DNA of 64,000 bases from Alphaproteobacteria bacterium (GCA_965214495.1 OZ243958.1:405989-469988), one strand, 5' to 3'. Positions 2,602 to 42,892 are shown, counted from the first letter of the stretch. Program-made: numbers and translations. The notes: generated by a model from the letters alone, not told the origin.

Positions 2602-3090
2602 TCAACGCGGCGCGATACCCTGTCCGGCCTTCGCGCGCCCGCGCCGGGCGGCGAAGAAGTTTCGCAGAAGAGACGCCGCTTCGCTCTCCGCGATGCCGCC
2701 ATAGACCTCCGGGCGGTGGTGGCAGCCAGATTGCGCGTAGAGGCGGGGGCCGTGGTCGATGCCGCCGCCCTTCGGGTCCGCGCAGCCGTAATAGAGGCGG
2801 CGGATGCGCGCGAAAGATGCCGCCTGGGCGCACATCGGGCAGGGCTCCAGCGTCACGTACAGGCTGCAACCTGTCAGGCGGGGCGAGCCGCGCGCCGCGG
2901 CGGCCGCGCGCAGCGCCAGCATCTCGGCATGTGCGGTAGGATCGTCGAGCGCTTCGGTGCGGTTGCCCGCCGCCGCCAGAATTGCGCCGTCGCGGGTTGT
3001 CACCACGGCGCCGACCGGCACTTCGCCCCGCGCCGCGGCGGCGCGGGCCTGCGCCAGCGCCTCGACCATCGGGTTCCCGCCGCTGTCCAT
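2602..3090 (-). CDS. tadA: tRNA-specific adenosine deaminase TadA (CMP/dCMP deaminase zinc-binding family).
   Basis: The sequence contains HAEMLALR and TLEPCPMCAQA zinc-ligand motifs, and VPVGAVV aligns with E. coli TadA. The ORF extends to 3156, but alignment puts the start at M(3090) or M(3069). The longer form would overlap the divergent gene starting at 3119. Confidence 0.8.
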   Translation of the reverse strand: MDSGGNPMVEALAQARAAAARGEVPVGAVVTTRDGAILAAAGNRTEALDDPTAHAEMLALRAAAAARGSPRLTGCSLYVTLEPCPMCAQAASFARIRRLYYGCADPKGGGIDHGPRLYAQSGCHHRPEVYGGIAESEAASLLRNFFAARRGRAKAGQGIAPR

Positions 3091-18858: not shown

Positions 18859-20065
18859 GTGCTGAAACGGCTCGCCCGCGCCCGCCTTGCGGCCGTCCTC
18901 GCCGGCGTCGTCTGGTCGATGGCCGCCGCCGGGGTCTCCGCGCAGACAACGCTGACGCTGTCGGCCGAGCGCGGCGACGGGAACGTGGTGACCGGCGTGA
19001 ACGAGAGCGCGGGCGCCTTCACCGTCAGGGCGACGCTGGACGCGGCCGCGCCCGCGGGCGGGGTGACCGTGACCCTGGCGCAAGGCTCGACCAGCGGCGT
19101 CAGCCGTCCCGCCACCCTGGGCGCCGCGGCCGGCGAAGGCGACTGGACCCTGCCGTCGCCGCCCACCATCGCCATCGCCGCGGGCCAGACCTCCGGCACG
19201 GCGAGCATCGCGGTCGTTGACGACACGCATCACGAGTTCGAACAGAAGATCGTCCTCACCGCCACCACGGATACGACGCCCGTCCTGACCGCGCCCCGGC
19301 TCATCGTCAACCTCGGGAGCAACGATCCGAAACCCCGCGTAACCGGGATTACCGCCCCCGACCCGGTGAATGAGGGCGACACGGGCGCGGGGGCGACGCT
19401 GACATTCACGATCAACCTGGACCGGATAACCGAGACGGCGGCTTCCGTTCGATACAGGATGGGGGGCACCGCGACCGAGAACGAGGACTATACTGTCGCA
19501 CCCAGAGGGGGGCGCGACGTGATCGTCTCCGAGAGGACGAGCCAGGACGTCGTCGTCACCGTCATTCCCGACACCATCGTCGAGCCGAACGAGACCGTCA
19601 ATCTCGAAATCTATCGCTTCGGCAGCAATCTCCATCAAAACAACAATGCCTCAATACTCGCCGGCAGCAGGATCAACAACGATGACTCGCACACGGCGCC
19701 GGCGTTCGCTTCGACCGCCGGGATAGACGACCAGGTCTGGGTGGCGGACACCGCCATCTCCACGCTGGAACTGCCGGTGGCCACCGGCGGCAACGGCGCG
19801 CTGACCTACACGCTGGCGCCGGCGCTGCCGCCCGGGATGACCTTCGACGGCACAGCCGACCCCCCGACCGTTACCGGGACGCCGACCGGGACCCGGGCGA
19901 CCGCGACGTTCACCTATACGGTCGCCGATTCCGACGCCAACGAGGCCGCCGGCGACACCGACTCGCTGACGTTCGACATCGCCGTCACCGACGCGCCGCC
20001 CGGGGCGCTCACGCTGTCCATCGTCGAGACCGTGGAGCACAACGGCATGACCGTGCCCGGCGGCG
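18859..20065 (+). CDS. Giant autotransporter adhesin, fragment 1 of 4 (frame 1): Sec signal peptide plus the first Calx-beta/cadherin-like passenger modules.
   Basis: GTG start with an SD (ccggagaggga). The signal peptide MLKRLARARLAAVLAGVVWSMAAAGVSA/QT is followed by Calx-beta-like and cadherin-like (TYTLAPALPPGMTFD...TGTPT) modules. Sense is lost after ...VEHNGMTVPGG at about 20062 and continues in frame 2. The rest of ORF 18859..21411 is out of frame. Confidence 0.7.
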
Positions 20066-23000: not shown

Positions 23001-24325
23001 CGGTCAGCGTCCCCATCCTCGACGACGAGGTCGCCTATGAGGGGCACAGGGAGACCTTCGCCATCGGGCTGAGCCTCCCGACGGGCGCGAACGCGATGCT
23101 CCACGACACCGATCGCACGGTCACGGTCACCGTTACCGACGACGACGGCGTCGGGGCGGCCCTGACCTTGTCCGCGCCCGGCGAGATGTGGGAGGGAGGG
23201 ACGGCGTCGGTGACCGCCACGCTGAGCCACCCGGCGCCGCCTCAGGGCCTCGACGTGACCCTCTACGAACCCACCGCGGGGCGGGGCGACGCCGTGCGGG
23301 ACTCGGACTGGTCGCTGCCGGCCGCCGTCATCGCCATCGCCGGGGGCGAGACGAGCGGCGCCGCGGCCCTCACGATCATCGACGACGACATCGACGAGCC
23401 CCGGGAGTCGATCGTGCTCCGCGCCACCACTTCCGGGCTCGTCCCCGGGCTGGACCTGTTCGCCCCCGACCTCACCATCTCGCTCTTCGACGACGACCGG
23501 GCGCCCGATCTGCTGGTCGTCTCCGCCAAGCCCGGCGAGCGGCCGGCCGACGTGGACGAGGGCGACAGCGGCCCCGGCGCGGAGTTCGAATACAAGCTGT
23601 CGCTGACCCGCGCCAGCGAGAAGGAGGTCCTCGTCACCTGGGAGGCCCTGGGCACGGCGAGCGCCGGCGAGGACTACAGCGCCGCGCCGCCCGCCGGGCA
23701 GTTCGCCTTCCCCAGGGGGCGGAAGGACTTCACCATCGTCCTCACCGTCATCCCCGACACCGACTTCGAGGAGGACGAGACGATCGGCATTCGGGTGCTG
23801 AGCGCCACCAATACCCTCGGCGTCCAGGAACCGGCGGAGACGGCGCTGAGCGCGATCCGCAACGACGACACCAACTCGACGCCCAGCTTCGCGGTCGATG
23901 CGCATATCGCCGATCAGGTCTGGGCGACGAGCGTCGATATCGGCACGCTGGAGCTGCCGGTGGCGGTCGGCGGCGGCGACGGCGGCCTGACCTACACGCT
24001 GACGCCGGACATCGCGGAATACGGGCTGACCTTCGACGCCGCCGCCGACCCGCCCAGCATCACCGGCGTTCCCGACAAGGAATTGGACGGCGTGGAGTTC
24101 CGTTACACGGTCACCGATGCGAACAACGACGCCAGATCCCTCGTCTTCGACGTCGTCATCGGAGAGCCGTCGTTCATCTTCCTCACCCCCTCGATTTACC
24201 GGGTTTCCGAGGACGCGGGCTCGGCCACCGTCCAGGTAAGGATAACTCCGGCCCCCGATCGGTCCGTTGACTACGAGCTGACCTTCACCGACGGCACGGC
24301 CACCGGGGCCGCCGACTATGAACGG
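20063..24325 (+). CDS. Giant autotransporter adhesin, fragment 2 of 4 (frame 2): repeated Calx-beta and cadherin-like domains.
   Basis: ORF 20102..24631, with sense continuing upstream to about 20063 (AASEGTGDDEVALIVTATLDRPALTGG). It holds multiple Calx-beta (DY..G.L.F.PGE....V.V.I.DD...E.DE.F.V.L) and cadherin-like modules. It ends inside a G7 run at about 24320, and the C-terminal 100 codons of the ORF are out of frame. Confidence 0.7.
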
Positions 24326-27300
24326 GGGGGCGACGGACACCACGTCCACCACCCCCAAAGAGGTAGCCAGCAGCCAGTCCGTCAAGCTCATCGACGACGA
24401 CATCGACGAGGCGGACGAGACCTTCACGGTGGCGATCGGCATCGATGCCGACACCTCGCGCGAGCACAGGGTGCTGGTCGATACCCCCAAAGAGGCCACC
24501 TGGACGATCGCCGACGACGACGATGCCCCGACGGGGATCGACCTGTCCGTGGACACGCCGGAGCTGGCCGAGAACGCCGCGCCGACCGAGGTCTCGGTGA
24601 CCGCCACCGTCACCGGCGGCACGACCTATGACGGCGCGACCACGGTGACCGTATCGGTGGACGGCAGCGGCGCCGCCGGCGTCGCCGGCTTCGCCGCGGT
24701 GGACGACTTCGACATCGTCATCCCGCACGGCGCGGAGAGCGCGAGCGGAACCTTCACCCTCGCCCCCGAGCCGAACGCCGCCGCCGGGACCGCGGAGACC
24801 GTCACCATCAGCGGTACGGCGCAGGGCGAGGAAGGCGCGTGGAAAGCCGACGAGCGCCCGGTGAACGGTTCGGCCACGATCGCGCTGGCCGATGCGCCGC
24901 TCTTCGCGGCCGAAGACGCCATCCCCGACCAGGGCTGGGTGACGGACACCGCCATCGCCGCGCTGGTGCTGCCGACGGCCACCGGCGGCGCGGCGCTCCT
25001 GGCCTACACACTGATGCCGGATCTCCCCGCCGGGGTGAGCTTCGACGGCGAGGCCGTCACCGGCACGCCGACGGAGACGGCGGCGGCGACCGCATATACC
25101 TGGACCGTCACCGACGCCGACGGCCACACCGACGCGCTGACCTTCGACATCACCGTCACCGCCGAGGCGCCGACCACGCTGACGTTCACCGCCGTCGTCA
25201 ACCCGGTGAACGAGGATGCGGGCAAGGCGGAGGTGCGGGCGCGGCTGAACCGGCCCGCGCCCACCGGCGGCGTGCGCGTGACCGGGCTCACCGTCCTCAC
25301 CGACGCTGCCATCCTGGGGGCCGACACCGCGGCGACCGCCGGCACGGACTTCACCCTGCCGGCTGACTTCACGATTCCCGCCGGCGAGTCGTCCGTGAGC
25401 GTGGACATCGTCATCATCGACGATGATCTGCTGGAAGGCGACGAGGTCATCATCCCCGACGCCACGACCGAGCCGGCGCTCACGGTCATCGGCGACCGCA
25501 TCGTCATCGCCGACGACGAGCGGCCGCCGAGCACGCTCACCCTCGCCGCCGACGCGACCGAGGTGGACGAAGACGTCGGCACGGTGGCGGTGACCGCCAC
25601 GCTGGACCACCCCGCCCCCGAGGGCGGCGTGACCGTGACGCTGGCCGAGGCCGCGACGCCCGGCACCGCCGCGCTGGGCTCGGACTGGGCGCTGCCGTCG
25701 CCGGCCACCATCGCCATCGCCGCGGGCGACACCAGCGGCTCCGCGAACCTCACCGTCACCGACGACGAGAGCGACGAACCCGGCCAGACGATCGTCCTCA
25801 CCGCCAGCACCGATACCACGCCGGCCCTCGACGCGCCCGACCTCACCATCGCCATCGACGACAACGACCCCCTGCCCGTGGTGAGCGTCGGCGCGGACCC
25901 GCCCGACGTGGACGAGGGCGACAGCGGCGCCGGCGGGACCTTCACCTTCACGCTGGAGCTGGACCGCGCCAGCGACAAGGAGCCGGAGGTCGACTGGGTG
26001 ATCGAGGGCTCGGCGGAGCGCCTGACCGACTACACCGGCGCCGGCAGCAACGACGGCGGCAGCGTGGTGTTCGGGCCGGGCGAGACGAGCCGCGATATCG
26101 TGCTCACCGTGGTGCCCGACACCTTCGACGAGCCCGACGAGACCGTTCGGCTCCGCATCGCGGCCGTCGACTCGAACGTGACGAGCGGCGCGAGGACCGC
26201 GAGCGCCTTCCGCCTGATCGTCGATGACGACGGGACGCCCACGACGCTGACGCTCTCCGCACCCGCCGAGGTGGACGAGACCGCCGGCCGGGTGCGGATA
26301 ACCGCCACCCTGGACCAGCCCGCGCCCGATGGCGGCGTGACCGTGACGGTGGCCCAGGCCGCGACGCCCGGCACCGCCACGCTGGACTCCGATTGGACGC
26401 TGGTGGACCCGCCCACCGTCTTCATCCCCGAGGGCGACAGGAGCGCGGGTTCGCCGAACGTGCTCGAGATCGAGCAGGACTCCGCCCTCGAACTCGCCGA
26501 GACCATCGTCCTCACCGCCACCACCGGCGCGCCCCTGAACCTCACCGCGCCCGACCTCACCATCTCCATCGTGGACGACGAGAACACGGCGCCGGCCTTC
26601 GGCTCCGGCGCTGCCATCGAAAACCGGATCTGGAAGACCCGTGTCGCCGTCTCCACGCTGAGGCTTCCGACCGCCACCGGCGGCAACGGGGCGCTGACCT
26701 ACACGCTGACGCCGGAACTCCCCGCCGGGCTGACCTTCGACGCCGCGGCCGACCCCCCGACCGTCACGGGCACGCCGACCGAGGGCCTGGCGACCACGCA
26801 GTTCACCTACACGGTGACCGACACCGACCTCGACAACGGCGCCGCCGACAGCGCCGCGCTCACCTTCGACCTCACGGTCACGGAGCTGCCCGTCGTCTCG
26901 CTCCGGGGCACGACCGTGACCGTCAGCGAGGGCGTGCAGGGGGGAGAGGCCACCCTGTGCATCGACTTCAGCAAGGCGCCGACCGAGGAGTTCCAGCTCC
27001 GCCTCGACTCCACCGACGTGACCGCCACGGGCAACGTCGATTACCAGGTTGTGAGTCGGGATGCGACGGTCAGCGCGGGGAGCCAGCTCTCCCGTTGCGT
27101 GACTTTCGAGATTGTGGACGACTCGATCGACGAGGGCGGCGAGACCTTCACCGTGGCGCTCAGCGTCCAGGGCGACAACGCGGAGAAGGCGTTCGTCAAC
27201 CCCGACGCGGCGATGGCGACGTGGACCATCACCGACAACGACGACGCGCCGGACGGCATCGACCTGTCGGCGGACACCCAGAGCGTCGCCGAGGGCGGCG

Positions 27301-30300
27301 GCGCCGCCGACATACGGGTCACCGCCACCGTCGCCGGCGATACGACCTACTCCGGCGTCACCACGGTCACCGTGTCGGTGGCCGGCAGCGGCGAGGACAA
27401 CGTGGTCGGCTTCACCGCGGTGGACGACTTCGACATCGCCATCCCGGACGGCGGCACGAGTGCGTATGCGGACTTCACGCTGACCCCGGTGGACGACACG
27501 CTGGACCAGTCGGACGAGACCGTCACCCTCCAGGGCGCGGCCGCGGGCGAGGAAGGCGCGCACAGGGCCGGCCAGCGCCCGGTGAACACGCCCTTGCCGA
27601 CCGTCACGCTGACCGACGACGACGAAGACACGGCGCCGGCCTTCGCCCAGGGCGCCGAAATTGCCGACAAAGCCTGGACGAAGGGCGTGGACGTCGGCGC
27701 GGTCGCGCTGCCGGCGGCCACCGGCGGCAACGGCGACCTGGCCTACACGCTGGCGCCGGACATTTCGGCGTTCGGGTTGACCTTCGACGCCGCGGCCGAC
27801 CCGCCCACCATCGCCGGCGCGCCGACGAGCACGCTGGCCGACGACCCGGATACCCCGGTGGACGAGACCCTGTTCACATACACCGTCACCGACGCCGACT
27901 TCGAGAACCCCGAGAGCGCCGCACTGACCTTCAACGTCGCCATCGACGATCCGCCGGTGGTGGCCGTCGCGGCGCAGAGCGTGGGCGAAGGCGACGGCGA
28001 GACGACGCTGACCGTGACCCGCACGGGCAACCTCACGGTCGCGTCGAGCGCGAGCTACGCCTTCACCGACGGCACCGCGACGGGCGGCGGGACGGACTAT
28101 ACGGGGACCGGCGGGACGGTCAGCTTCGCGGTGAACGAGACCTCGGCGACGATCCCCGTCACCATCGTTCAGGACACCATCGACGAAGACCCCGACGAAA
28201 CCTTCACGGTGACGCTGAGCGTACCGAGCGGGGCGACGCTGGGGACGGCCAGCGCCGTCATCACGATTACCGATGACGACGATGCGCCGACGAGGGTGGT
28301 GCTGAGCCTGGACGGGGACCCGAACACCGCGGGCGAGCAGGCTTCGGTGGACGAGGGCGGCGGCGCGCAGACGGTGACCGTGAAGGCGTCGCTCGATGGT
28401 GGCACGACGCGGGCCGAGGCCACGGTGGTGACCGTGACGGTGGCGGCGGACACGGCGACGGAGACGACCGACTACACGGCGACGGTGGCCGATCCGTTCG
28501 AGATCGAGATTCCGGCGGCGACGGTGAGCGGGACGGGGACGTTCTCGATTATTCCGGTGGACGACAGCATCGACGACGACGCCGAGACGCTCTCGGTGAC
28601 CGGAAGCACGGAAGCCTCGGTGGGCCTTGCGGTGACGGGAGCGGACCTGACGATCGCGGACGACGACGAGGTCCCGGCGAAGCCTGCGAAATTCGCGGCG
28701 GCGGCGGGCAACGCGCAGGTGACGCTGAGTTGGGACGACCCCGGGGACAGCAGCATCGAGAAGTACCAAATCCGGCAGTGGGAGAGCGCCGACAGCGAAC
28801 CCGCCACCTGGACCGACATCGCAAGCAGCGATGCCGACACGGTGAGCCACACCGTCACCGGGCTGACCAACGCCACCGAATACAGCTTCCGCATCCGGGC
28901 GGTGAACGCGACCGGCGACGGCGCGCAGTCCGACGCGGCGACGGCGACGCCGGCGGATGCCCCGGCAAAGCCGGCGAACTTCGCGGCGGCGGCCGGCAAC
29001 GCGCAGGCGACGTTGAGTTGGGACGACCCGAGCGACAGCAGCATCGAGAAGTATCAGCTCCGGCAGTGGGCGAGCGCCGACAGCGAGCCTGCCACCTGGA
29101 CCGACATTGCCGGCAGCGACGCCGACACGGTGAGCCACACCGTCACCGGGCTGACCAACGGGACAGCTTACAGCTTCAGGGTCCGGGCGGTGGGCGCGGG
29201 CGGCGACGGGGCGCAGTCGGACATCGCGACGGCCACGCCGGTCGCCGTCACGGGCGCCGATTCTTCACCGGCGCCCACGGTGGTCGGTGACGACATTACC
29301 GCCACCGTTGGCGGCACGAACGTGAAGTTGACGCTGCCGAGCGGCCATGGCGTGAGCGCCGTCACGTTTTCCGTGCCGACGCCGGCGGTCGCCGCACCCG
29401 ACGGCGTGACCTTTGGCGACGATCCGGCTTATGTGGACATCGACCTCGGCACGGCGTCGCTCTCGTCGGACGCCGCGGTCTGCCTCGCCGAGCCGAGCGG
29501 GCTGTCGGGCACGCTGGCGCTCTATCACCTCTCCGACGGCGGAACGGCGTGGACGGGGCTGGACGCCCCCGCCTCGACGCCGACCGGCTTCGTGTGCGGC
29601 GAGACGAGCGATTTCTCCAGCTTCGTGGTGGGCAAGCAGGAGGCGACGCTCGCACTGTCGATCGTGGAGACGATCGAGCATGGCGGCGAGACGGTGCCGG
29701 GGGTGTCGGAGGGCGAGAGTGCGGATGTGGCGCTCGTGGTGACGGCGACGCTGAGCGCGCCGTTGGCGTCGGCGGTCGAGTTGACGCTGGAGGACGCCTC
29801 GGGGACCGGCGACCGCGCGACGCTCGACGAAGACTGGTCGCTGCCGGAGGACCTGACGACGACGATCGAGGCGGGGGACACGACCGCCACCTGGACGGTC
29901 ACGATCGTCCACGACGCCGATGAGGAGTATAGCGAGACGTTCACGCTCCGGGCGACAGCCACCGCCCCGGCTCTGTCGGCGGATCTCGGGATCCGCATCG
30001 GGGACAACGACGACGCGCCGGTGCTGGACCGGATCGAGAAGACGGCGGACGTGGATGAGGGCGACAGCGGCACGGGCGCCACCATCACGTTCACGGTGTA
30101 TCTGACCGGTGCGACGGACAAGACCAGGCTCGAATACCTGTTCTCGCCGTACGGCGTGGACCCGAACCGGGCGACCTTCCTCCTCCCCTACGACACCTAC
30201 ACGGGGGCGGAGGACTACGCGCTGGAGACGGACACCCCGAACACGTGGGGGGTGCTGAAGTATGCGAAAGGACAGGCGAGCGCCGACATCGTATTCAGGG

Positions 30301-33300
30301 TGTTTCCCGACACCGACGGCGAGCCGGACGAGCGGTTCTACGTCGCCGTCACGTCGGATTGGCAGGACTCCGAGGCGATCCGCCTGAACTCGGCTCCGGC
30401 CACCATTCGGAACGACGACCTCTCCATGCTGAGCCTGTCCGCTGCGCCGAACCCGGTGGACGAGGACGACGGTCCGGCGGTGGTGACGGCGACGCTGAAC
30501 GAGCCGGCGCCGGAGGGCGGGGTCACGGTGACGCTGGCCGAGGCGAAGGATGAAGACGACGAGCCGCTCGGCAGCGCCGCCCTCGACACCGACTGGTCGC
30601 TGCCGTCGCCGGCCACCATCTCCATCGCGGCGGGCGAGACGAGCGGCGAGGCGAACGTCGCCATCACCAACGACTCCCTGGACGAGCCGGACGAGACCAT
30701 CGTCCTCACCGCCACCACCGGTGCGCCGCTGGACCTCACCGCGCCCGACCTCACCGTCACCATCGACGACGACGATCCCGAGCCCACCGCCTCCATCGCC
30801 ATCACCGCCGAAGAGGCGAGCGTCACCGAGGGCACGGACTCCGAGGTGTCGGCCACCATCGGTCTCGACGCCGCCAGCGCGAGGAGGGTCAAGGTGGGCT
30901 GGTCGACGAACAGTGGCACGGCGAGGTCCGACTCGGACTACACCGGCTCGGGCAGCGTGCTGACGTTCGCACCGGGCGAGACGACGAAGACGGTCACGGT
31001 TCCCATCCTCGACGACGACAAGTACGAGCCGGAGGTGGAGACGTTCACGATCTCTCTGGATCCCGATGTACCGAACTCGAATGCGCAGCTCCACGCGACC
31101 GATACGAGCGTCACGGTGATGATCACCAGCGACGACGCGGCGCCGGTGATCGCGCTCGCGGCGCAGACGGTGGGCGAGGGTGCGGGGGCGACGACGCTGG
31201 CGGTGACGCGCAGCGGGGACGATCTGAGCGTGGCGTCGAGCGCGAGTTACACCTTCACCGACGGGACGGCGACGGGGAGCGGGACGGACTACACGGGGAC
31301 GGACGGGACGGTGAGCTTTGCGGCCAACGAGACCGCGGCGACCATCCGCGTCACCATCGTGCAGGACACACGGTGGGAGGACCCCGACGAGACCTTCACG
31401 GTGACGTTGAGCGCGCCGAGCGGGGCGACGCTGGACCCGGAGACGCCGGTGACGATGACGATCACGGACGACGACGCGGAGCCGGTCGCGGTAAGCATTC
31501 CCGACGCGAACCTGCGCGCGGGGCTGGAGGCGGCGCTGGGCAAGAGCGCTGGCGACACGATTACGGACGCCGAGTTGGCGGGTCTGACGAAACTCGAAGT
31601 GGAGGCGGCGGAGGGAGCGGCCGAGAGCGCGAAGGTGAGCGACCTGACGGGGCTCGCTTACGCGGTCGGCCTGCGGACCCTGGACCTCACCCGCAACGCG
31701 CTCGAGAGCGACGACCTGACCCACATCGCCGGGCTGAGCGCGCTGCGCAACCTGTTCCTGGAATACAACGCAATCAGCGACGTGTCGTCGCTGAAAGACC
31801 TGACGGGGTTGCGCGACCTGCGGCTATACGACAACGACGTCACGGACATCGAGCCGCTGGTGGAGAACACGGGGCTGGGCAGCGGAGACTCCGTCGATCT
31901 GCGCATCAACAGCCTCGATTACCCCTCGGTCAACACTCACGTGCCTGCTCTGACGGGCCGGGGGGTGACGGTGAATTTCTTTGACCGGACGCCGACGACG
32001 CTGACGGTCGTCTCCGGCGACGATCAGGCGGGTCCGGGGGGCGAGGCGCTGGCGGCTCCGTTCGTGGTGCGAGTGGATGACGAGGACGGGGACCCGTTCG
32101 AGGGCGTGCCGGTGACGTTCACGGTCACCGCGGGCGGGGGGACGCTGGACGACGAGACCGACACCGAGACCCCGGTGGTCGTCGCGACGGACGCCGCGGG
32201 CGAGGCGGAGGCGACCCTGACCCCGGGCACGACCGTCGAGACCAACACGGTTCAGGTGACGGCGGCGGAGATCGCGGACGCCGCGACCTTGACCGCGACG
32301 ACGAACGACGTGCCGACGCTATCCATCGCCGACCAGACGGTGGCCGAGGGTGCGGGGAGCACGACGCTGACGGTGACGCGGACGGGCGATCTCAGCGGGA
32401 CCTCGAGCGCGAACTACGCCTTCGCCGACGGCACCGCGACGGGCAGCGGGACCGACTACACGGGGACGAGCGGGACGGTGACCTTCGCGGCCACCGAGGG
32501 CAGCAAGACCATTCCCGTCACCATCGTTCAGGACACGATCGACGAAGGCGCGAGTGAAGCGTTCACGGTGAGTCTGAGCAGTCCGAGCGGCGCGATTCTG
32601 GGCGATGCGGAGGCCGCGATCAGCATCGCCGACGACGACACGCGGGGCGTCACGGCGAGCGAGTCGGCGCTGACGATGACCGAGGCGGACGGGACGGGGG
32701 CCAGCTACACGGTGGTGCTCGATTCGCAGCCGACGGACGATGTGACGGTGGCCATCGGCATCGAGGACGGCTCCGGCAACCTGCTGACCGACCACGACCT
32801 GACCATCGGCCCGTCGGCGACGCTGACCTTCACGACAAGCGATTGGGCGACGGCGCAGACGGTGACTGTGACGGCCGGGGAAGACACGGACACGACGACC
32901 GACACGGCGACGCTGACGCATGCTCCGACCGGCGCCGACTACACGGGGGTGACCGGCCCGGAGGTGACGGTCACGGTCACCGACGACGATTTCACCGTCA
33001 CGGGCGCCGATTCTTCGCCGGCGCCCACGGTGGTCGGTGACGACGTTACCGCCACGGTCGGCGGCACGAACGTGAAGTTGACGCTGCCGAGCGGTCACGG
33101 CGTGGGCGCCGTCACCTTTTCCGTGCCGACGCCGACGGTCGCCGCACCCGCCGGCGTGACCTTTGGGGACGATCCGGCCTATGTGGACATCGACCTGGGC
33201 ACGGCGATGCTCTCGTCGGACGCCACGGTTTGCCTCGCCGAGCCGAGCGGGCTGTCGGGCACGCTCGAGCTCTATCACCTCTCCGACGGCGGAACGGCGT

Positions 33301-36300
33301 GGACGGGGCTGGACGCCCCCGCCTCGACGCCGACCGGCTTCGTGTGCGGCGAGACGAGCGATTTTTCGAGCTTCGTGGTGGGCAAGCAGGACGAGGAAGA
33401 GGAGCTGACGCCGGGTCAGGTGACGGGGCTGAGCGCGACGCGGGCGTCTTTCGGCGCCGGGCGCTTTGTGGACCTGAGCTGGACGGCGCCGGCCGACGGC
33501 GGCGCGGTGGTGTCCTACGAAGTGCAGTCGCGGCGCGGGACGAGCGGCGAGTGGACCACCGCTGCGAGCGACGTCGAGGGAACCGCCTATCGCGCGGTAG
33601 GGATAAGCTTCGCCTATTATGAATACCGGGTGCGGGCGCTGAACGCCCACGGCGCCGGGGAGTGGTCGGAGGAGGCCACGGTCGGCACGCCGCCGCCTCA
33701 GGAGCCGGGCGCGCCGCAGAACCTCGCAGCGACGGTGAACAGCTCCAGCCGGGTCACGCTCGTCTGGGTCGCGCCCACGGAGACCTACGGTAACGGCGAT
33801 CCGATCCCGGTCACCGGCTACGTGATCGAGCGCGCCACCGGCGACGAGGGCGCCTTCCACAGCGTCGAGAACAACCATGCCGCCAGCCCTTATGTGGACA
33901 CGGGGCTGACAGCGGGCACGCGATACCGGTGGCAGGTGATAGCGTTCAACGACGCCGGCTTCAGCAATGAGTCGAACGTGGTAGCCGCGACGACGACCGC
34001 GAATCAGGCGCCGACGGGTTCCGTGACGATTACCGGCACGGCGACGCAGGGCGAGACGCTGACGGCGGACACCTCCGGCATCGCGGACCCGGACGGTCTC
34101 GGGACCTTCGCCTGGCAGTGGCATCGCGACGGCGCGGATATCTCCGAGGCGACGGGGTCGACCTACGATCTGGTGCAGGCCGACGTGGGTGCGGCGATCA
34201 CGGTGACGGTGAGTTGGACCGACGGCGGCAATACGGCGGAGTCGCTGACCTCGACCGCCACGGCGGCGGTGACGAACGTGAACGACGCACCGACCGGTGC
34301 GGTGACGATCACGGGCACGGCGACACAGGGCGAGACGCTGACGGCGGACACTTCCGGCATCGCGGACGCGGACGGTCTCGGGACGTTCTCCTACCAGTGG
34401 AAGCGCGACGGCACGGACATCCCCGGCGCGACGGCCTCCACTTACACGCTGGCGCAGGCCGATGTGGGTGCGGCGATCGCGGTGACGGTGAGTTGGACCG
34501 ACGGCGGCAATACGGTGGAGTCGTTGACCTCGGCCGCCACGGCGGCGGTGGCCGCCGCCGCCGCCGACGACGGGCCGTACGGGTTCACGCTTTCTGTGGA
34601 TCAGGCTTCGATCCCGGAGGGATCGACGACGACGGTGAGGGTGACGGCGGAGCTTGACACGGACGATCCGACGGCGGTTGCGCCTGCGGACATCGTCCTC
34701 ACGCTGGGGGTGGTGGATTTGTCGGCGGCGTTGGACACGGACTACGAGCTTCCTGCGACGTTGCCGACGTTGACGATCTCGTCCGGGTCTCGCGTCGGCA
34801 GCGTGGATATTGCGGTGACGGCGCTTCGCGATGCGGGCGACGATGTGCGCCAGTTCAACTTCGTGGTGGAGAGCTTCGCGGTGACGGGGGGCTTGACGCT
34901 GACCGCGCCGGACGGTGTGGAGACGGCGGCGAGCGGGTCGGCGACGGTGAGTATCGCGCCGACGGCGTCGCTTCCGGTGCTGACGCTGGATACGGGCAAT
35001 CCTGCGGTTGCGACGCGTGAGGGTGACGTGGAGGGTCGCCCGGTGACGCTGTCGGTGTCGCCTGCGGCGTCGGAGGCGCTGTCGGTGTCGATGGGCGTGG
35101 CGGCCGTTCCGTCGGGGAGCGTGGTGTGGTGCGTGGGCGCGGCAGCGGACTGCGTGGAGGATTGGGACCATGACGGGGATGGGGACACCGACCCCATTCG
35201 CCGGGTCAGGACGCCGGACAACGAGCAGGAGACGCACGAGGTCACGATCCCGGCGGCCGCGTCGCAGGCGACCTTCCATGTGTTTGCGGCGCATGACGAC
35301 GACGCGCAGGACGGCGCGGTGAGGCTAACGGTGAACGAGGCGTCCTCGACGCTGGGGGCGACGGCGCTTTCGGAGGCGATCTCCGACGGCGAGTTCGGGA
35401 GCGTGGTGGAGACGCGCAACGCGGTGTCTGTGGAGGACGACGATGAGGCGCTGGCGTGGTCGGGGACGGTGGGCGACCAGTGGTATCGGCAGGGTGTGGC
35501 GATCGCGAGCTTGAGGCTGCCCGCGGCGACGGGGGGCGTGGGCGCGATTACCTACACGCTGGAGCCGGCGCAGGGGCAGGCGTTCCCGCCGGGTCTGGGC
35601 TTTGCGGCCGGCTCGCGCACGCTCTCGGGGACGCCGGAGGCGGGGGGCGTCTGGACGCTGACCTATGCGGCGACCGACGGGGTGAGCACGGTCACGGACG
35701 AGATCAAGGTGACGGTGGCGGGCGCGGTGTTCGCGGGTGCGGACGATGTAGCGGTGACCGAGGAGGGGGCGACGGACAGCTACACGGTGGCGCTGGCGAC
35801 GCCGCCGAGAGGTTCGACGCCGGTGACGGTGACGGTGACGGTGGTGCGGGGCGACGCGGAGGCGGTCGTCGATACCGATGCGGACGCGGCGGGTTCGCAG
35901 AACACGCTGACTTTCACGCACGGCAACTGGGCGACGGCGCAGACGGTGACGGTGTCGGCGGGTGCGGACGCCGACGCCGACGACGAGCAGGCGGTGCTCG
36001 GCCACGGCTTTGCGGGGTTTGGCTACGCCGGCGTGACGGTTGCCGATGTGACGGTGGCGGTTGCCGACGACGACACGGCGGGGGCGGTGTTCGCGCCGTC
36101 GGCGCTGCCGTCGCTGACCGAGGGAGGATCGACGGACTACACGGTGGCGCTGGCGACGCGGCCGCCGGGCCCGGTGACGGTGCTGATCGCGAGCGACAAC
36201 GCCGACGTGACGGTGTCGCCGGCGTCGCTGGCGTTCGCGGTGGACGGTTGGGCCACCGCGCAGAGGGTGACGGTGACGGCGGGGCAGGACGCCGACGCTG

Positions 36301-39300
36301 CGGATGACGCGGCGGTGCTGAGGCACTCGTTCAGCGGGCAGTATGGGGCGGCGACGCAGGGGCTGGCGGTGTCGGTGACCGACGACGACACGGCGGGTCT
36401 GGCGTTCGACCCGGCATTGCTGGAGCTGTCCGAGGGCGGGACGGGGCAATACACGGTGGCGCTGGCGACGCAGCCGGCGGGTCCGGTGACGGTGACGGTG
36501 ACGAGCGGCGACACGGCGGCGGCGACGGTGTCTCCCGGCGAGCTCACCTTCACGACCGCCGATTGGGACACGGCGCAGACGGTGACGGTGACGGCGGTCG
36601 AGGACGACGACGCGCAGGACGAGACGGTCTCGCTCGACCATGCGGTCACGGGTTATGCCGGCGTAGCCTCGGCGTCGTTGCTGGTTGCGGTGGCCGACGA
36701 CGAGACCGCGGGCGTCACCCTGGACACTTCGGGGCTGGCCGGGTTCGGGGAAGGCGGCGATGCGACCTGGACGGTCGTGCTTGACACGCTGCCGAGTGCG
36801 TCGGTGACGGTGACGCTGGAGTTGACCGGCGACGGCGACCTGTCGGTGGATCGGACGGCGCTGAACTTCACGACGGGCAATTGGGACACGCCGCAGACGG
36901 TGACGGTGAGCGCGGCGCAGGACGCCGACCTGACGGACGATACCGGACAGGTCGTCCATACCGCCGCCGGGGCGTCGGAATATGCCGGGCTGGAGGCGAC
37001 GGCGGCGCTGAGCGCGGCGGACGACGACAGTGCGGCGCTGGTGCTGAGCGCGAGCGCGCTGACGCTGCTGGAGGGCGGCGACGGGCAGTCGTGGACGGTG
37101 AAGCTGAACGCGCAGCCCTCGGGCGCCGTGCGCGTCGCCATCGCCAGCGACAATGCGGACGTGACGGTGAGCACGGCGGTGCTGGCCTTCACGACGAGCG
37201 ACTGGAACAGCGCGCAGACGGTGACGGCGCGCGCGGCGCACGACTCCGACGCGACGAACGACACGGGGGTGACGCTGACCCACACCGCCCACACCGCTGC
37301 CGTGGGCGGCTTCGACGGGGTGACGGCGGCGCTGTCGGCGTCGGTGACGGACCGGGCGCCGTCTCTGGCGATCGGCGCGGCGTCGGTGTCGCCGTCCGAG
37401 GGCGGGCAGGCGTCCTACACGGTGAAGCTGGGGACGCGGCCGTCGGCGACGGTGTATGTGGCGGTGGGGCACAGCGGCGACGCCGACATCCAGGCTGCCC
37501 CGGCGAGCCTGGAGTTCCGGCCCGACGACTGGAACGCGGCGCAGACGGTGACGGTGCGCGCGGCGCAGGACGCCGACTTCGTGGACGACGCGGCGGTGCT
37601 GACGCACACGGCGAGCGGCGGCGCCTATGCGGGTCTGGCCGGCGAGAACGTGGCGGTGAGCGTGACGGACGACGACGCGCCGGGTGTGTCGGTGGCGGGT
37701 TCGACGACCGACGACGCGTCGGTGACGGTGGCTGAGGGGGCGGCGGAGTCGGCGTTCTACAGCGTGGTCCTGACGGCGCAGCCGACGGACGCGGTGACGG
37801 TGTCGGTCTCGAAGAGCGGCGGTGCGCGGGTCGTGGCGCTTCCGTCGTCTCTGAAGTTCACGCCGGCGACGTGGAACATCGCGCAGCAGGTGGGGGTGTT
37901 TGCGCGCGCCGACGCGAACGGGGTGGACGAGACGGCGGTGCTGAGCCACAGCGCGTCGGGCGGCGGCTATGGCGGGGTGGACATCCCGTCGGTGGATGTG
38001 TCGGTGACCGACGACGACACGCCGGCGCTGACCTTCGCGCCCTCGGCGTTGGCGTTCGACGAAGGCGGCGAGAGCGCATACGAGGTGAGCCTTGCGACGA
38101 AGCCGACGGTGTCGGTGACGGTGTCGGTGTCGAGCGACAACGACGAGGTGACGGTGGACACCGACCCGGACACGGCGGGCGAACAGGACAGGCTGACCTT
38201 CACGGCGAGCGACTGGGATACGGCGCAGACGGTGACGGTTCGGGCGACGCCGGACGCGGACGCGGCGGACGACACCGCGGTGCTGTCCCACGACGCCGGC
38301 GGGGGCGAGTATGAGGACGTGTCGGGCGATGTGTCGGTGAGCGTGACCGACGGGATCGTCCCCGGGGTGGTGGTGAGCGCGACGGAACTCGATGTTGCTG
38401 AGGGCGGGACGGGGACCTGGACGGTGCGTCTTGCGACGCCGCCTTCGGGCACGGTGACGGTGACCGTGTCGAGCGACAATGCCGATGTCACGCTTGGGCA
38501 GGCGGCGGCGGACGGGACGCGGAGCCTGACGTTCAACGCGAACAACTGGTCGAGCGCGCGCGAGGTGCGGGTTCGGGCGGCGCAGGACGACGATGCGGTG
38601 GACGACACGGCGATGCTGTCTCATGCGGTGTCGGGCTACGGTTCGGTGACGAGCGGTCCCGCTGTGACGGTGACGGTGACCGACAACGACGAGGCGGGGG
38701 TGACGATCTCGCCGCTGGCGCTGGATCTGACGGAGGATGCGTCCGGCGGCGGCAACGAGGGTTCCTACACGGTGGTTCTCGACTCGCAGCCGACGGCGCC
38801 GGTGACGGTGACGGTGGCGAGCGACAACGCCGATGTGACGGTGTCGCCGGCGAGCCTGAGCTTCACGACGACCGACTGGGCGACGCCGCAGGAGGTGGCG
38901 GTGACGGCGGCGCAGGACGCCGACGCGGCGGACGACACGGCGGTTCTGTCCCATGCGGTGTCCGGCTACGGGGCCGGCGACGAGGCGGTGACGACCGGCC
39001 CCGCAGTGTCGGTGAGCGTGACGGACGACGACACGGCGGCGCTCGTGTTGTCGGTGTCGTCGCTGTCGTTCGAGGAGGGCGGCGCGGCGCAGGACTACAC
39101 CGTGGCGCTGGCGACGCAGCCGACGGCGACGGTGACGGTGGCGGTGACGAGCGACAACGCCGACGTGACGGTCGCGCCGGCGAGACTGACCTTCACGACG
39201 GGCAATTGGGCGACGGCGCAGACGGTGACGGTGACGGCGGCGGCGGACGCCGACGCGGCGGACGACACGGCGGTGTTGAGCCACGCGGCGAGCGGCGGCT

Positions 39301-42300
39301 ATGACGAGGCGGCGGGTTCGGTATCGGTATCGGTGACCGACGACGACGCGGCGCTGGTGGTGAGCGCGACCGAGGTGTCGGTGTCGGAGGGCGGCGTGGC
39401 GTCGTGGACGGTGAAGCTGGCGGCGGCGCCGAGCGGCCCGGTGATGGTGGCGGTCGAGCGCAGCGGCGACAGCGACGTTGCGTTCTCGCGGACGAGCCTC
39501 GAGTTCACGACGCTGAACTGGGACTACGAGAAGGTGGTGACGGTCGAGCCGGCGCAGGATGCGGACGCGGTGGACGATGTGGCGACCTTCACCCACACCG
39601 CCTCCGGCGGCGAATACGACGATGTCGCGCCGGTGGACGTGACGGTGACGGTGGACGACGACGAGACGCCGCCGGTTACGGGTGTGACGGTGAGCGCGAC
39701 CGCAGTGGCCGTGGATGAGGGCGGTTCGGGCAGCTATACGGTGGTTCTCGACTCGCAGCCGACCGGGACGGTGACGGTGACGAGCGGCAACGCCGACGTG
39801 ACGGCGGCGCCGGCGAGCCTGGCCTTCACGACGAGCGACTGGGATACGGCGCAGACGGTGACGGTGAGCGCGGCGCAGGACGCCGACCACGCCGACGACG
39901 CGGCGGCGCTGACGCACGGGGTGAGCGGCTACGGGACGGTGACGGCCGGCCCCGACGTGTCGGTGTCGGTGACGGACGACGACGCGCCGGCGCTGGTCCT
40001 CTCGGCGTCGAGCCTGACGGTGGCCGAGGGGAGCACGGCCAACTACACGGTGGCGCTGGCGACGCAGCCGGCCGGGACGGTGAGCGTCGGCATCGCGAGC
40101 CGCGGCAGCGACGGCGATGTGACGGTGGCCCCGGCGAGCCTGACCTTCACCGCGAGCGACTGGAACAGTGCGCAGACGGTGACGGTGAGCGCCGCGCAGG
40201 ACGACGACGGCATCGCCGAGCGGGCGACGCTGCGCCACCGGGTTGAGGGGTATGGCCCCGTCGTGTTCTCGGAGACCCTCGTGGTGGATGTGACCGAGGC
40301 CGACGCCGACGCGGTGGTGGTTACGGCGGACGACCCGCTGGCGGTGGCCGAAGGCGGCGAGGCGGCCTACACGGTGAAGCTCGCGACGCGGCCTGCCGGC
40401 GGGGCGGAGGTGACGGTGACGCCGGGCGTGAGCGGCGACGCCTCGGTGACGGTGTCGCCGTCTGTGCTGACCTTCACCACCGGCGACTGGAACGTGGCGC
40501 AGACGGTGACGGTGAGCGCGGCCGAGGACGACGACGGCGAGAGCGGCGCGGCGACCGTGAGCCACGCGGTCGCGGGCTACGGCAGCGTCGAGACGGGGCC
40601 GGACGTCCCGGTGACGGTGACGGACGACGACGCGCCGGGCGTCCTGGTGAACGGTTCGACAAGCGACGCGACGCTGGAGGTGACCGAGGGCGCGTCCGGC
40701 TCCTACACGGTGAGGCTGTCGTCGCAGCCGTCGGGCGCGGTGACGGTGACGGTGACGAGCGACGATACCGGCGTGACGGTCGATACCGACGCCGGCACGA
40801 CCGGCGCTCAGGACGAGCTCACCTTCACGACGAGCGACTGGGACACGGCGCAGACGGTGACCGTGAGCGCCGCCGAGGACGACGACCACACCGGCGAAAC
40901 GGCGACGCTGACGCACGCGGTGAGCGGCTACGGTTCGATATCCGGCGGCCCCGAAGTGTCGGTGAGCGTGACCGACGACGACACGCCCGCGCTGGTGCTG
41001 TCGCTGTCGTCGCTGTCGTTCGACGAAGGCGATGCGGCGCAGGACTACACCGTGGCGCTGGCGACGCAGCCGAGCGGCACGGTGACCGTGACGGTGACGA
41101 GCGACAACGCCGACATAACGGTCTCGCCGTCGAGCCTGAGCTTCACGACGACCGACTGGAACACCGCGCAGACGGTGACGGTGAGTGCGGCCTCGGACGA
41201 CGGCGTAGCGGACGATACGGCGACCTTGACGCACAGCGCGAGCGGCGGCGGCTATGGCGGGGTGAGCGCAGCGGTGTCGGTGTCGGTGACCGACCACGAC
41301 GCGGCGCTGGTGCTGGGCGCCGCAGGGCTGACGGTGGCCGAGGGCGGCTCGGACGGCTACACGGTGGCGCTCGCCGCGCGGCCGAGCGGGACGGTGACGG
41401 TGACGGTCGCGGTCACCGGCGACGTCGACATAACGGTCTCGCCGTCGAGCCTGAGCTTCACGACGAGCGACTGGAACGTGGCGCAGACGGTGACGGTGAG
41501 CGCGGGCGAGGACGACGATGGCGCCGACGGCGTGGCGTTCGTCCACCACCACGTCGCCAGCGGCGGCTATGACGGTCTCGCGCCGGTCACGATAGGGGTG
41601 ACGGAGAGCGACGACGACGGCGGCCTGACCTTCGGCAAGACCGCGGTGGAGAATCTGGCCGAGGGCGGTTCGGACACCTACACGGTGGCGCTGGGCGTGC
41701 AGCCGGGCGGCAATGTCGAGGTGGCGATCGCCCACAGCGGCGACGGCTCGATCGCCGCCAGCCCGACCGTGCTGCGCTTCACCGCCTCCGACTGGAACGT
41801 GGCGCAGACGGTGACGGTGAACGCGGCGCAGGACGCCGACGGCGAGGACGACGAGGCGGTGCTGACCCACACCGCTTCCGGCAGCTTCTATGACGGCGCC
41901 GGGGACGTCACGGTGACGGTCGCCGACGACGAGACGCCGGGGGTGACGGTGACGCCGACGGGCCTGAGCCTGAGCGAGGGCGGTGAGGCGAGCTACACGG
42001 TGAAGCTGGACACGCAGCCGCTGCAAACGGCGACGGTGACGGTGTCCGCGACCGGCGACGCCGACATCGGCTTCGACACCGAGGCCGCCACCGCCGGCGA
42101 CCAGACGACGCTGAGCTTCACCGCGACCGACTGGAGCGTGGCGCAGACGGTGACGGTGCGCTCGGCGCGCGACGCCGACACGGCCGACGACGCGGCGACG
42201 CTGACGCACACGGTCGCGGACTACGACAGCGGCGACGCGTCCGGCGTTCATCCGGTGACGGTGACGGTGACCGACGACACGCGGGCGCTGGTCTTCTCGT

Positions 42301-42892
42301 TGTCGGCGCTGGAGATCGACGAGGGCGGGTCGGGTTCCTACACGGTGCGGCTGGCCAACGGGCCGCCGACCGGGTCGGTCGTCGTGGCGATCGCGAGCGA
42401 CGACGCCGACGTGTGGACGGTGCAGAAGAACCTGGTCTTCACGACCGCGAACTGGGAGACGGCGCAGACGGTCGCGGTGCAGGCGGGCGAGGACGCCGAC
42501 GCGGAGGCCGACGAGGCCGCTCTGACGCACACCGCGAGCGGCGGCGGCTTCGACGGCGTGACCGGGGTCGTGACCGTCGCCGTGGCCGACAACGACACGC
42601 TGCCGGCGGCGCCGGCCGACTTCACGGCGACGCCGCGGGACGGCGAGGTCGCGCTGAGCTGGGACGCCCCCGCGCCGGCGGACGCGGTGACCGGCTACGA
42701 GTGGCGCCGGGACGGCGGCTCGTGGACCGCCATCGCGAACAGCGCCGACCTGACGAGCCACACGGTCACCGGGCTGACCAACGGGACTGCCTACAGCTTC
42801 GGTCTGCGGGCGGTGAACGCCAGCGGCGCCGGGGCGGCAGCGACCGCGACCGCGACGCCGCAGCCGAAGCCGGGACAGGTGACGGGGGTTGA
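24318..42892 (+). CDS. Giant autotransporter adhesin, fragment 3 of 4 (frame 0; about 6,190 codons): Calx-beta, FN3 x2, duplicated 130-aa block, LRR region, Big-like and cadherin-like repeats, and about 22 tandem 100-aa modules of the ...[26 protein letters not shown]... family.
   Basis: ORF 24318..43289. The two FN3 modules are ...LSWDDPGDSSIEKYQIRQW...YSFRIRAVNATGDG. The LRR stretch is at 31500-31900 (LTGLRDLRLYDNDVTDIEPL). Sense ends at a G5 run at about 42890 and continues in frame 1. Confidence 0.75.

Follow-up and report, generated by a model that had tools for sequence, protein, structure and literature searches.

The 64,000-nucleotide stretch of DNA from an Alphaproteobacteria bacterium analyzed here (GCA_965214495.1, OZ243958.1:405989-469988; hereafter, the window) carries on its plus strand the gene for a giant adhesin of approximately 9,500 residues, in which a block of 131 amino acids occurs three times. 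We modestly favor the reading that this block is a bacterial member of the ZU5/GAIN-subdomain-B/MAIN superfamily and that it provides the adhesin with a putative force-sensitive break point. Domains of this superfamily are beta-sandwiches in which the bond preceding a Ser or Thr, located in a tight turn ahead of the last strand, can break by an N-to-O acyl shift. In a domain cleaved in this manner the last strand stays hydrogen-bonded, and the resulting joint is non-covalent and can be separated by force.

A six-frame scan of the 64-kb window with a hidden Markov model (HMM) of the family identified exactly three copies of the block (29244-29648, 32994-33398 and 45187-45594), with i-Evalues of 2.6e-44 for copy 1 and 1.5e-38 for copy 3. 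Copies 1 (29247-29639, plus strand) and 2 (32997-33389, plus strand) are both in frame and each encode the 131 residues VTGADSS...FVVGKQ, copy 1 corresponding approximately to residues 3459-3589 of the reconstructed protein. Copy 3 (45172-45594, plus strand) is diverged, sharing 56% amino acid identity with copy 1, and ends approximately 600 residues before the C-terminus. The scan thus bears out the claim, made in an earlier reading of the sequence alone (the sequence-only reading), of a third, diverged copy near the C-terminal end. Copy 3 occupies the canonical position of the family, followed by a He_PIG domain, a linker and an outer-membrane beta-barrel, and copies 1 and 2 are additional internal modules.

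Fold and family of the repeated block

The block forms a discrete module with sharp limits, and Pfam has no model that matches it. None of the three copies matched a Pfam family at E≤10, and the comparison of 48 relatives with Pfam at E≤1 revealed no consistent family and neither ZU5 nor GPS. The block and its flanks produced only FN3-related matches in NCBIfam, sequence searches of the PDB with a single copy and with a 48-sequence profile returned no match, and no related locus was detected in GTDB genomes with the three-copy alignment. A word-indexed homologue search found none with one copy and, with the profile of the family alignment termed A3, only short unnamed metagenomic proteins, while neither the block nor the MAIN domain of Streptococcus agalactiae had a tblastn match among plasmids. 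An exhaustive HMM search against 1.84 billion cluster representatives identified 90 relatives at E≤1e-3, 17 of them at E≤1e-10. The alignment A3 comprises 48 domain segments with a mean column identity of 24%, and the conservation counts given here refer either to these 48 members or to a family set of 78 members. Residues Cys79, Trp102 and Cys117 (numbered within the block) are invariant in A3, Ser124 and Gly118 are each conserved at 96%, Phe126 at 94% and His94 at 85%, and the family consensus can be written as ...xVCL...LYH(L/Y)...W...(V/I)CGxTxSFSPFxVG. The two conserved Cys residues pointed out by the sequence-only reading are invariant as a pair in 78/78 members.

Modeling with AlphaFold2 on A3 yielded an all-beta structure with a mean predicted local distance difference test (pLDDT) score of 96.1 and a predicted template modeling (pTM) score of 0.89, in which strands span residues 11-13, 16-21, 24-29, 40-42, 63-66, 76-81, 90-95, 115-120 and 125-130. 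The same strands were obtained, with a pLDDT of 85, when only the three copies in the window were supplied. Foldseek gives a like picture for both models, the best PDB match being the ankyrin ZU5 domain (3ud1_A, TMq 0.63, prob 1.00), followed by the ZU5 domain of UNC5b (0.50), the GAIN domains of BAI3 (4dlo, 0.50) and CD97 (0.43), the BAI2 GAIN domain and the ZU5 domain of ZO-1. Both Cys79 and Cys117 (29481-29597 in copy 1, codons 29481-29483 and 29595-29597, plus strand; 33231/33345 in copy 2 and 45430/45538 in copy 3) fall within predicted strands, and the strand of Cys117 leads into the turn discussed below as the putative cleavage site. The pair is predicted to form a disulfide joining the strand of that turn to its neighbor. 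We regard the fold assignment as solid, and it is very probable that the block is a true homologue of ZU5, GAIN-B and MAIN domains.

Two other identities for an all-beta module have to be weighed against these matches. An ordinary Ig-like, PKD or FN3 spacer missed by Pfam would be in keeping with an all-beta block of about 130 residues set among Ig-like arrays, but is highly improbable: neither these folds nor a cadherin fold appear in the Foldseek top 50 of the pLDDT-96 model against the PDB, and at E≤1 the 48 members include no such Pfam match, a single RibLong match (0.043) being the one exception. An Ig, PKD or FN3 identity was accordingly rejected. Scarcely more probable is a carbohydrate-binding, lectin-like jelly-roll module aiding in glycan binding. 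Weak Foldseek matches do point in that direction (the chitosan-binding 4zxe, GH66/CITase accessory domains and the lectin domain of lectinolysin; E 0.08-0.5, prob 0.15-0.5), but their TMq values (0.2-0.45) and probabilities are low and all of them rank under the ZU5 and GAIN matches. No Pfam model of a carbohydrate-binding module (CBM) matches any of the 48 members, and the conserved residues are grouped at the C-terminal hairpin instead of forming a binding face. A CBM identity was rejected on the Foldseek result. The sequence-only reading had suggested that the block may be a discrete uncharacterised module and had proposed HHpred or an AlphaFold model as a check, with a confident HHpred match to a known Ig-like or PKD domain as the contrary outcome. 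The model returned ZU5 and GAIN folds instead, so that the module stands as discrete and without a Pfam match, but its superfamily is a known one, as indicated by these fold matches and by the profile link to MAIN domains.

Sequence link to MAIN domains and putative cleavage site

The ZU5, GPS and Nup98 autopeptidase domains were unified by Zhang et al. in 2012, who also noted that large surface proteins of bacteria contain ZU5-like domains (PMC3482391). Microbial Autoproteolysis INducing (MAIN) domains, described by Brogan and Rudner in May 2026 (bioRxiv 10.64898/2026.05.12.724683) and exemplified by Bacillus subtilis YfkN and the S. agalactiae IgA-Fc receptor, are GAIN-B-like sandwiches of bacteria and archaea that cleave themselves at HF|S and the halves of which remain non-covalently associated afterwards. 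They are located between a large adhesive or enzymatic ectodomain and the cell-wall anchor. Self-cleavage of the S. agalactiae MAIN domain is lost in the catalytic Ser-to-Ala mutant, and a template modeling (TM) score of 0.63 was accepted for YfkN against latrophilin (bioRxiv 10.64898/2026.05.12.724683). The same preprint lists only three dubious autotransporter assignments and proposes MAIN as the Gram-positive counterpart of autotransporters; apart from this remark, our literature search found no paper linking ZU5 or MAIN domains with autotransporters.

For comparison with these domains, the S. agalactiae MAIN sequence was rebuilt from Table S8 of the preprint, which gives it in truncated form, and the database fragment P0122. 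The profile of A3 aligns with it in hhalign with a probability of 78.5% and an E-value of 1.7e-5 over 72 columns, pairing LYH with VYH and GFVCGETSDFSSFVV with GQVVFKTSHFSLFAI without a gap. The register of the motif is exact (TSHF|SLFAI in S. agalactiae, TSDFSSFVV here), and this ungapped alignment makes Ser124 the positional equivalent of the validated nucleophile. The putative scissile bond of copy 1, TSDF|SSFVV, thus falls between the codons of Phe123 and Ser124 (29613-29618, plus strand), which align with the HF|S of S. agalactiae, and its equivalents are found at 33363-33368 in copy 2 and at 45556-45561 in copy 3 (ESF|STFVV), both on the plus strand. Ser124 is present in 46/48 members and Phe or Leu occupies position 123 in 47/48. 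The Phe123-Ser124 pair lies in the AlphaFold model in the loop between the last two strands (115-120 and 125-130), as does the scissile position of GAIN domains, situated in the turn between their last two strands (PMC3321182), and the domain ends seven residues after Ser124.

A candidate for the general base is His94, within the YHL motif (codon 29526-29528 in copy 1, 33276-33278 in copy 2 and 45472-45474 in copy 3, plus strand). The position is occupied by His in 66 of 78 members and by Arg in the remaining 12, and it precedes Ser124 by 30 residues. In the alignment with the S. agalactiae MAIN domain it falls on the YH of that domain, whose His precedes the nucleophile by 27 residues. Members with Arg94 tend to carry Asp, Glu or His at position -2 relative to the putative cleavage site (9/12, against 13/66 of the others; Fisher p = 3e-4, not corrected for phylogeny), and this covariation suggests that positions 94 and 122 touch. 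In the ZU5 domains of NLRP1 and CARD8, which cleave at an F|S motif and have Ser at -2, the catalytic His likewise lies upstream, by 27 residues, the catalytic residues being H942 and S969 in rat and the triad E1195/H1186/S1213 in human (PMC8081665, PMC9700037).

From these elements a mechanism can be proposed. After export, the domain would fold and the Cys79-Cys117 disulfide would pin the strand that enters the Phe123-Ser124 turn. Ser124 would then attack the carbonyl of Phe123, with His94 on the neighboring strand as the base; a role comparable to that of the distal His of NLRP1 and CARD8 is proposed for His94 because copies 1 and 2 have Asp, and copy 3 has Ser, at the -2 position where His is usual. 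The pieces of the cleaved adhesin would stay together until a pull on the bound passenger draws out the last strand, SSFVVGKQ, whereupon the distal part would be shed.

Arguments for and against self-cleavage

We place self-cleavage of the domain a little short of an even prospect. Counted in its favor were the 96% conservation of Ser124 in a family with a mean column identity of 24%, the Phe or Leu that precedes it in 98% of members, the placement of the site in a GAIN-like turn ahead of the last strand and the distribution of Cys residues in the giant protein, which has only 14 in its approximately 9,509 residues, all in seven close pairs, three of which are the Cys79/Cys117 pairs of these domains.

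The main alternative is a non-cleaving ZU5-like beta-sandwich, comparable to those of ankyrin and UNC5, which would serve as a rigid spacer or ligand-binding module and would keep the FS-x-F motif, the Trp and the disulfide to hold the C-terminal hairpin; we regard it as a serious contender, though with a probability well below even. Several observations weigh against the favored reading, and four of them (the ankyrin matches, the missing His at -2, the internal position of copies 1 and 2 and the degenerate upstream copy) also speak for this alternative. Many ZU5 domains, ankyrin and UNC5 among them, do not cleave, and the top structural matches of the block are those non-cleaving ankyrin domains. 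In an autotransporter, moreover, secretion could be impeded by a disulfide loop of 38 residues that has already closed in the periplasm. The Pfam models of ZU5 and GPS miss the three copies and, since the Foldseek E-values are modest (best 1.8e-3) and the TM-scores lie between 0.5 and 0.63, the fold match taken by itself is suggestive and not conclusive. The MAIN domain of Streptococcus pneumoniae has no hhalign match to the family profile, so that the sequence link rests on one comparison and has moderate support. All three copies lack the His at -2 (HXS/T) required in GAIN and MAIN domains, with Asp in its place in copies 1 and 2 and Ser in copy 3, and no more than 3/48 members have it. The H836S mutation impairs cleavage of latrophilin, and BAI3, with Arg at -2, is uncleaved in heterologous cells, even though brain BAI proteins are cleaved (PMC3321182). 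Copies 1 and 2 are internal and remote from the anchor, approximately 5,900 and 4,700 residues from the C-terminus, outside the published MAIN layout. A degenerate upstream copy in Arenicellales and Nitrospirales relatives (RSGSPVVVG) has lost Phe123 and Phe126 and yet persists, indicating that uncleavable versions are tolerated. Finally, the gene is interrupted by three frameshifts and may be a pseudogene.

Against a non-cleaving domain stand the conservation of Ser124, at the position of the validated MAIN nucleophile and in a family so divergent overall, and that of His94 at the place where FIIND domains have their distal catalytic His (PMC8081665). In addition, an anchor-proximal placement across varied anchors is what would be expected of a release module, and not of a generic spacer.

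Comparison with known autoproteolytic systems

The domain resembles MAIN domains in being a beta-sandwich of about 130 residues with a GAIN-B/ZU5-like fold, in the x-F-S-x-F-[AV]-[VI] motif that precedes the last strand in register with S. agalactiae, in the upstream YH common to both and in its occurrence within secreted proteins of very large size that abound in FN3, cadherin, LRR, Calx-beta and Ig domains, where copy 3 and the domain of relatives sit directly N-terminal to the cell-surface anchor. It differs from them in the replacement of the -2 His by Asp or Ser (His in 3/48) and in its invariant Cys pair and Trp, of which at least the Cys pair is missing from the streptococcal domain. 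Instead of a sortase or SLH anchor, the adhesin has the beta-barrel of a Gram-negative autotransporter, and it contains the domain in triplicate, with two copies lying thousands of residues away from that barrel. Cleavage here is putative.

A second parallel can be drawn with the FIIND (ZU5-UPA) of NLRP1 and CARD8. Both have a ZU5-type fold and both are without the -2 His; the FIIND motif [S]-F|S-P can be set beside the family consensus SFSPF, and copy 3 reads SFS. The catalytic His of FIIND domains lies on a neighboring strand 27 residues upstream, and the conserved His of the family 30 residues upstream (PMC8081665, PMC9700037). FIIND cleavage products remain associated, which is proposed likewise for the adhesin. 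Unlike in FIIND proteins, no UPA or CARD follows the domain, its place being taken by Calx-beta-like, FN3 or He_PIG modules, and the domain is extracellular with a predicted disulfide, whereas FIIND is cytosolic. No sequence similarity between the two was found, no comparison aimed at it having been made.

With the GAIN/GPS region of adhesion GPCRs and polycystin-1 (PMC3321182), the domain shares the fold of subdomain B, as judged by structural matches (BAI3 4dlo, TMq 0.50; CD97, 0.43), the location of the putative scissile position in a kinked turn of the last two strands, conserved Cys residues on neighboring strands, a conserved Trp and a general layout in which a large adhesive ectodomain precedes the domain and a membrane anchor follows it. 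It lacks the helical subdomain A and the HL|T/S consensus, and has one predicted disulfide instead of two; and since there is no seven-transmembrane receptor, signaling through a tethered agonist is not expected. The bacterial ZU5 autopeptidases of Zhang et al. (PMC3482391) are typically N-terminal in RHS/TcdB-type toxins and have a C-terminal CxH motif, in contrast to the invariant Cys followed by G-x-T-x-x-F-S and the autotransporter context observed here.

Duplication of copies 1 and 2

The near-identical duplication of a 130-residue block announced by the sequence-only reading is real, as established by self-BLASTN of the locus, pairwise MAFFT alignment and in-frame comparison. In BLASTN, 29242-29641 and 32992-33391 are 94.5% identical over 400 nucleotides with zero gaps, and the coding sequences differ at 21 of 393 nucleotides (94.7% identity), slightly below the figure of more than 95% given in that reading. 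Its starting points for the two copies (29263 and 32998) are mutually 15 nucleotides out of register and one base out of frame. The spacing between the two copies is exactly 3,750 nucleotides, or 1,250 codons, in an ungapped direct repeat within the large open reading frame (ORF) at 24318-43289 (6,323 codons), where the block peptide occupies residues 1644-1774 and 2894-3024. Identity begins at 29245/32995 and ends at 29641/33391 in the MAFFT alignment, with unrelated flanks, and because both limits coincide with the domain edges, the repeat unit is exactly the protein module VTGADSS...FVVGKQ.

The two copies have seven amino acid differences (95% identity), with rates of synonymous (dS) and nonsynonymous (dN) substitution of 0.13 and 0.029 and a dN/dS ratio of 0.22, and both are under purifying selection. 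In a gene otherwise rich in repeats of 70-87% identity, no other pair is as similar, which makes a late duplication or gene conversion reasonable, as the sequence-only reading had suggested, but with a dS of 0.13 the event is recent only in relative terms. Copies 1 and 2 are mutual duplicates, arising by either a domain-precise duplication or gene conversion. Mismatches are concentrated upstream, with 19 in the first 272 nucleotides and two in the last 121 (binomial p = 0.023 for a partition chosen post hoc), a skew compatible with either a younger conversion tract or tighter constraint on the C-terminal motif. The sole two differences in that last segment, at 29615 and 29618, are the synonymous third positions of the Phe123 and Ser124 codons. 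The longest stretch of perfect identity spans 96 nucleotides (29519-29614) and, given that the repeat is also in frame, deletion of the intervening 3,750 nucleotides by homologous recombination would preserve the frame and is possible on sequence grounds.

Third copy and relationships among the copies

In a neighbor-joining tree, copies 1 and 2 pair together and then with a homologue from a Terriglobia metagenome-assembled genome (MAG), with 76% amino acid identity, while the partner of copy 3 is the domain found in P0005, a further autotransporter of the same genome (73% identity). This grouping makes copies 1 and 2 a separate lineage that was duplicated or homogenised within the gene, and their origin as recent duplicates of copy 3 was consequently rejected. 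The Terriglobia homologue (OZ244053.1, locus L012, 311-351, minus strand; the MAG belongs to the Acidobacteriota) is the closest relative of copies 1 and 2 outside the genome and shares their TSDFS motif; its downstream context ends at the boundary of the locus.

A frameshift at a G5 run (42884-42888) divides the gene ahead of copy 3, which is therefore found in a separate ORF (42889-47400). The modules that follow the three copies are Calx-beta-like after copy 1, FN3 after copy 2 and He_PIG after copy 3. The array ahead of copy 3, taken to be cadherin-like in the sequence-only reading, is named IG_AIR9 by Pfam and ZirU-like by NCBIfam. A segment of 1.2 kb following copy 2 (33403-34552, FN3-FN3-A9-type) recurs with approximately 80% nucleotide identity at 42862-44039, where it opens the array leading to copy 3 and holds the frameshift at 42884-42888.

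Architecture and distribution of relatives

In the 90 relatives, 340-610 residues separate the end of the domain from the C-terminus, and the tail that follows is either an autotransporter-type barrel (with C-termini in F or W, and PF03797 in three cases), a sorting signal of the form P[ED]TGG followed by hydrophobic and basic segments, or a T9SS-like or dockerin-like tail. Copy 3, at approximately 600 residues from the C-terminus, matches the layout in which MAIN domains precede the anchor.

A degenerate DNA pattern for VCGxTxxFSxFV[VA]G was also searched in the GTDB species set, and the matches were verified with the family HMM. The search yielded 16 loci, all HMM-confirmed, which distribute over an Arenicellales MAG (OY730442.1, six loci), a Nitrospirales MAG (OY729426.1, five loci), a Proteobacteria MAG (two loci) and, with one locus each, a Thermodesulfobacteriota MAG, the Terriglobia MAG and a Methylococcales symbiont of the sponge Hymedesmia. 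Three Arenicellales (L004, L006 and L016) and two Nitrospirales (L011 and L015) loci carry near-identical tandems consisting of the degenerate RSGSPVVVG copy, an intact copy (DFSVFVVG or GSFSVFVVG) and a barrel. The presence of closely similar C-terminal adhesin cassettes in MAGs assigned to different phyla suggests horizontal exchange between co-resident bacteria or cross-talk in binning or assembly.

Taken to its fullest extent, the favored reading would define a disulfide-stapled GAIN/MAIN subfamily in which a FIIND-like distal His stands in for the -2 His and which self-cleaves in type V autotransporters of Gram-negative symbionts, so that a 9,500-residue adhesin is segmented into non-covalent pieces with several force-sensitive breaks, the cassettes being shared horizontally across co-resident phyla; in this extended form, we consider it speculative and rather unlikely. 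MAIN domains are known almost entirely from Gram-positive proteins with sortase or SLH anchors, and here a related module appears inside autotransporters themselves. Its putative catalytic layout differs in that the His at -2 is missing, a distal His is conserved and a Cys pair is invariant, and several copies occur per protein. Should the domain cleave, a mechanically releasable joint would extend to diderm bacteria, the rule of a His at -2 would not be universal outside FIIND domains and the giant adhesins of symbionts would have a concrete, mutable site for shedding or length control. Should it not, the family would offer a clean natural case in which a degenerate GAIN-like fold is retained for its structural role. 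In both cases, a Pfam model, of which none matches at present, could be defined from the 90 representatives at E≤1e-3.

The host gene and its neighborhood

The gene harboring the three copies (18859-47400, plus strand) comprises approximately 9,509 codons in four ORFs separated by three frameshifts, and was reconstructed from the translations and from continuous homology to paralogous modules, which persists across the frame changes near 20,058, at the G7 run and at the G5 run. Its first ORF opens at 18859 with a signal-peptide-like N-terminus (VLKRLARARLAAVLAGVVWSMAAAGVSAQ), in which a Sec signal peptide (VLKRLARARLAAVLAGVVWSMAAAGVSA, 18859-18945, plus strand) cut before Q is predicted by eye from the translation. 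The passenger contains Calx-beta, He_PIG, FN3, LRR, Big_1 and IG_AIR9 domains according to Pfam and ZirU-like repeats according to NCBIfam, along with about 30 cadherin-like modules and A9/ZirU-like Ig repeats, and the protein closes with a C-terminal beta-domain. The remaining Cys pairs of the protein lie at nucleotides 22082/22103, 22232/22262, 26958/27096 and 35130/35151. Between copy 3 and the translocator there is a He_PIG-type Ig domain (45598-45880, plus strand), which aligns to the He_PIG region of a neighboring gene and at the place of which relatives match PF05345.

The divergent autotransporter beta-domain (46144-47397, plus strand, ending in ...GLQYRIRF) was identified by its similarity to the C-terminus of the ORF at 56652-60401. 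The last 600 or so residues of the giant protein are without a Pfam match of their own, but are 38% identical (E 1e-66) to that C-terminus, which matches He_PIG and, at 25.9 bits for a gathering score of 26, PF03797; the relatives P0006, P0047 and P0055 score above the PF03797 gathering score. On the strength of this similarity and of the PF03797 relatives, the protein is treated as a divergent type Va autotransporter, and the same homology agrees with the sequence-only reading in locating the block in an autotransporter passenger.

The frame changes were mapped by three-frame translation to 20050-20065, to a G7 run at 24324-24330 and to the G5 run at 42884-42888, the paralogous segment of which reads G4 at 33430. 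Two of the three are thus at G homopolymer runs, and the GC content is 70.6%. The frameshifts could reflect long-read homopolymer errors, slipped-strand phase variation or pseudogenisation. Two entries of a public protein collection, P0001 and P0003, correspond to ORFs of the window.

Downstream (50964-60401, plus strand) lies another giant, autotransporter-like gene, which encodes N-terminal LRRs, Calx-beta, a long array of near-identical modules of about 105 residues, He_PIG repeats and a PF03797-like barrel. It shows frame changes near 53,650 and 56,650 and has no copy of the ZU5/MAIN-like domain. A third autotransporter, with a strong match to PF03797 (74 bits), is encoded on the minus strand at 47503-50484, between the two giant genes, which makes the locus a cluster of three type V genes.

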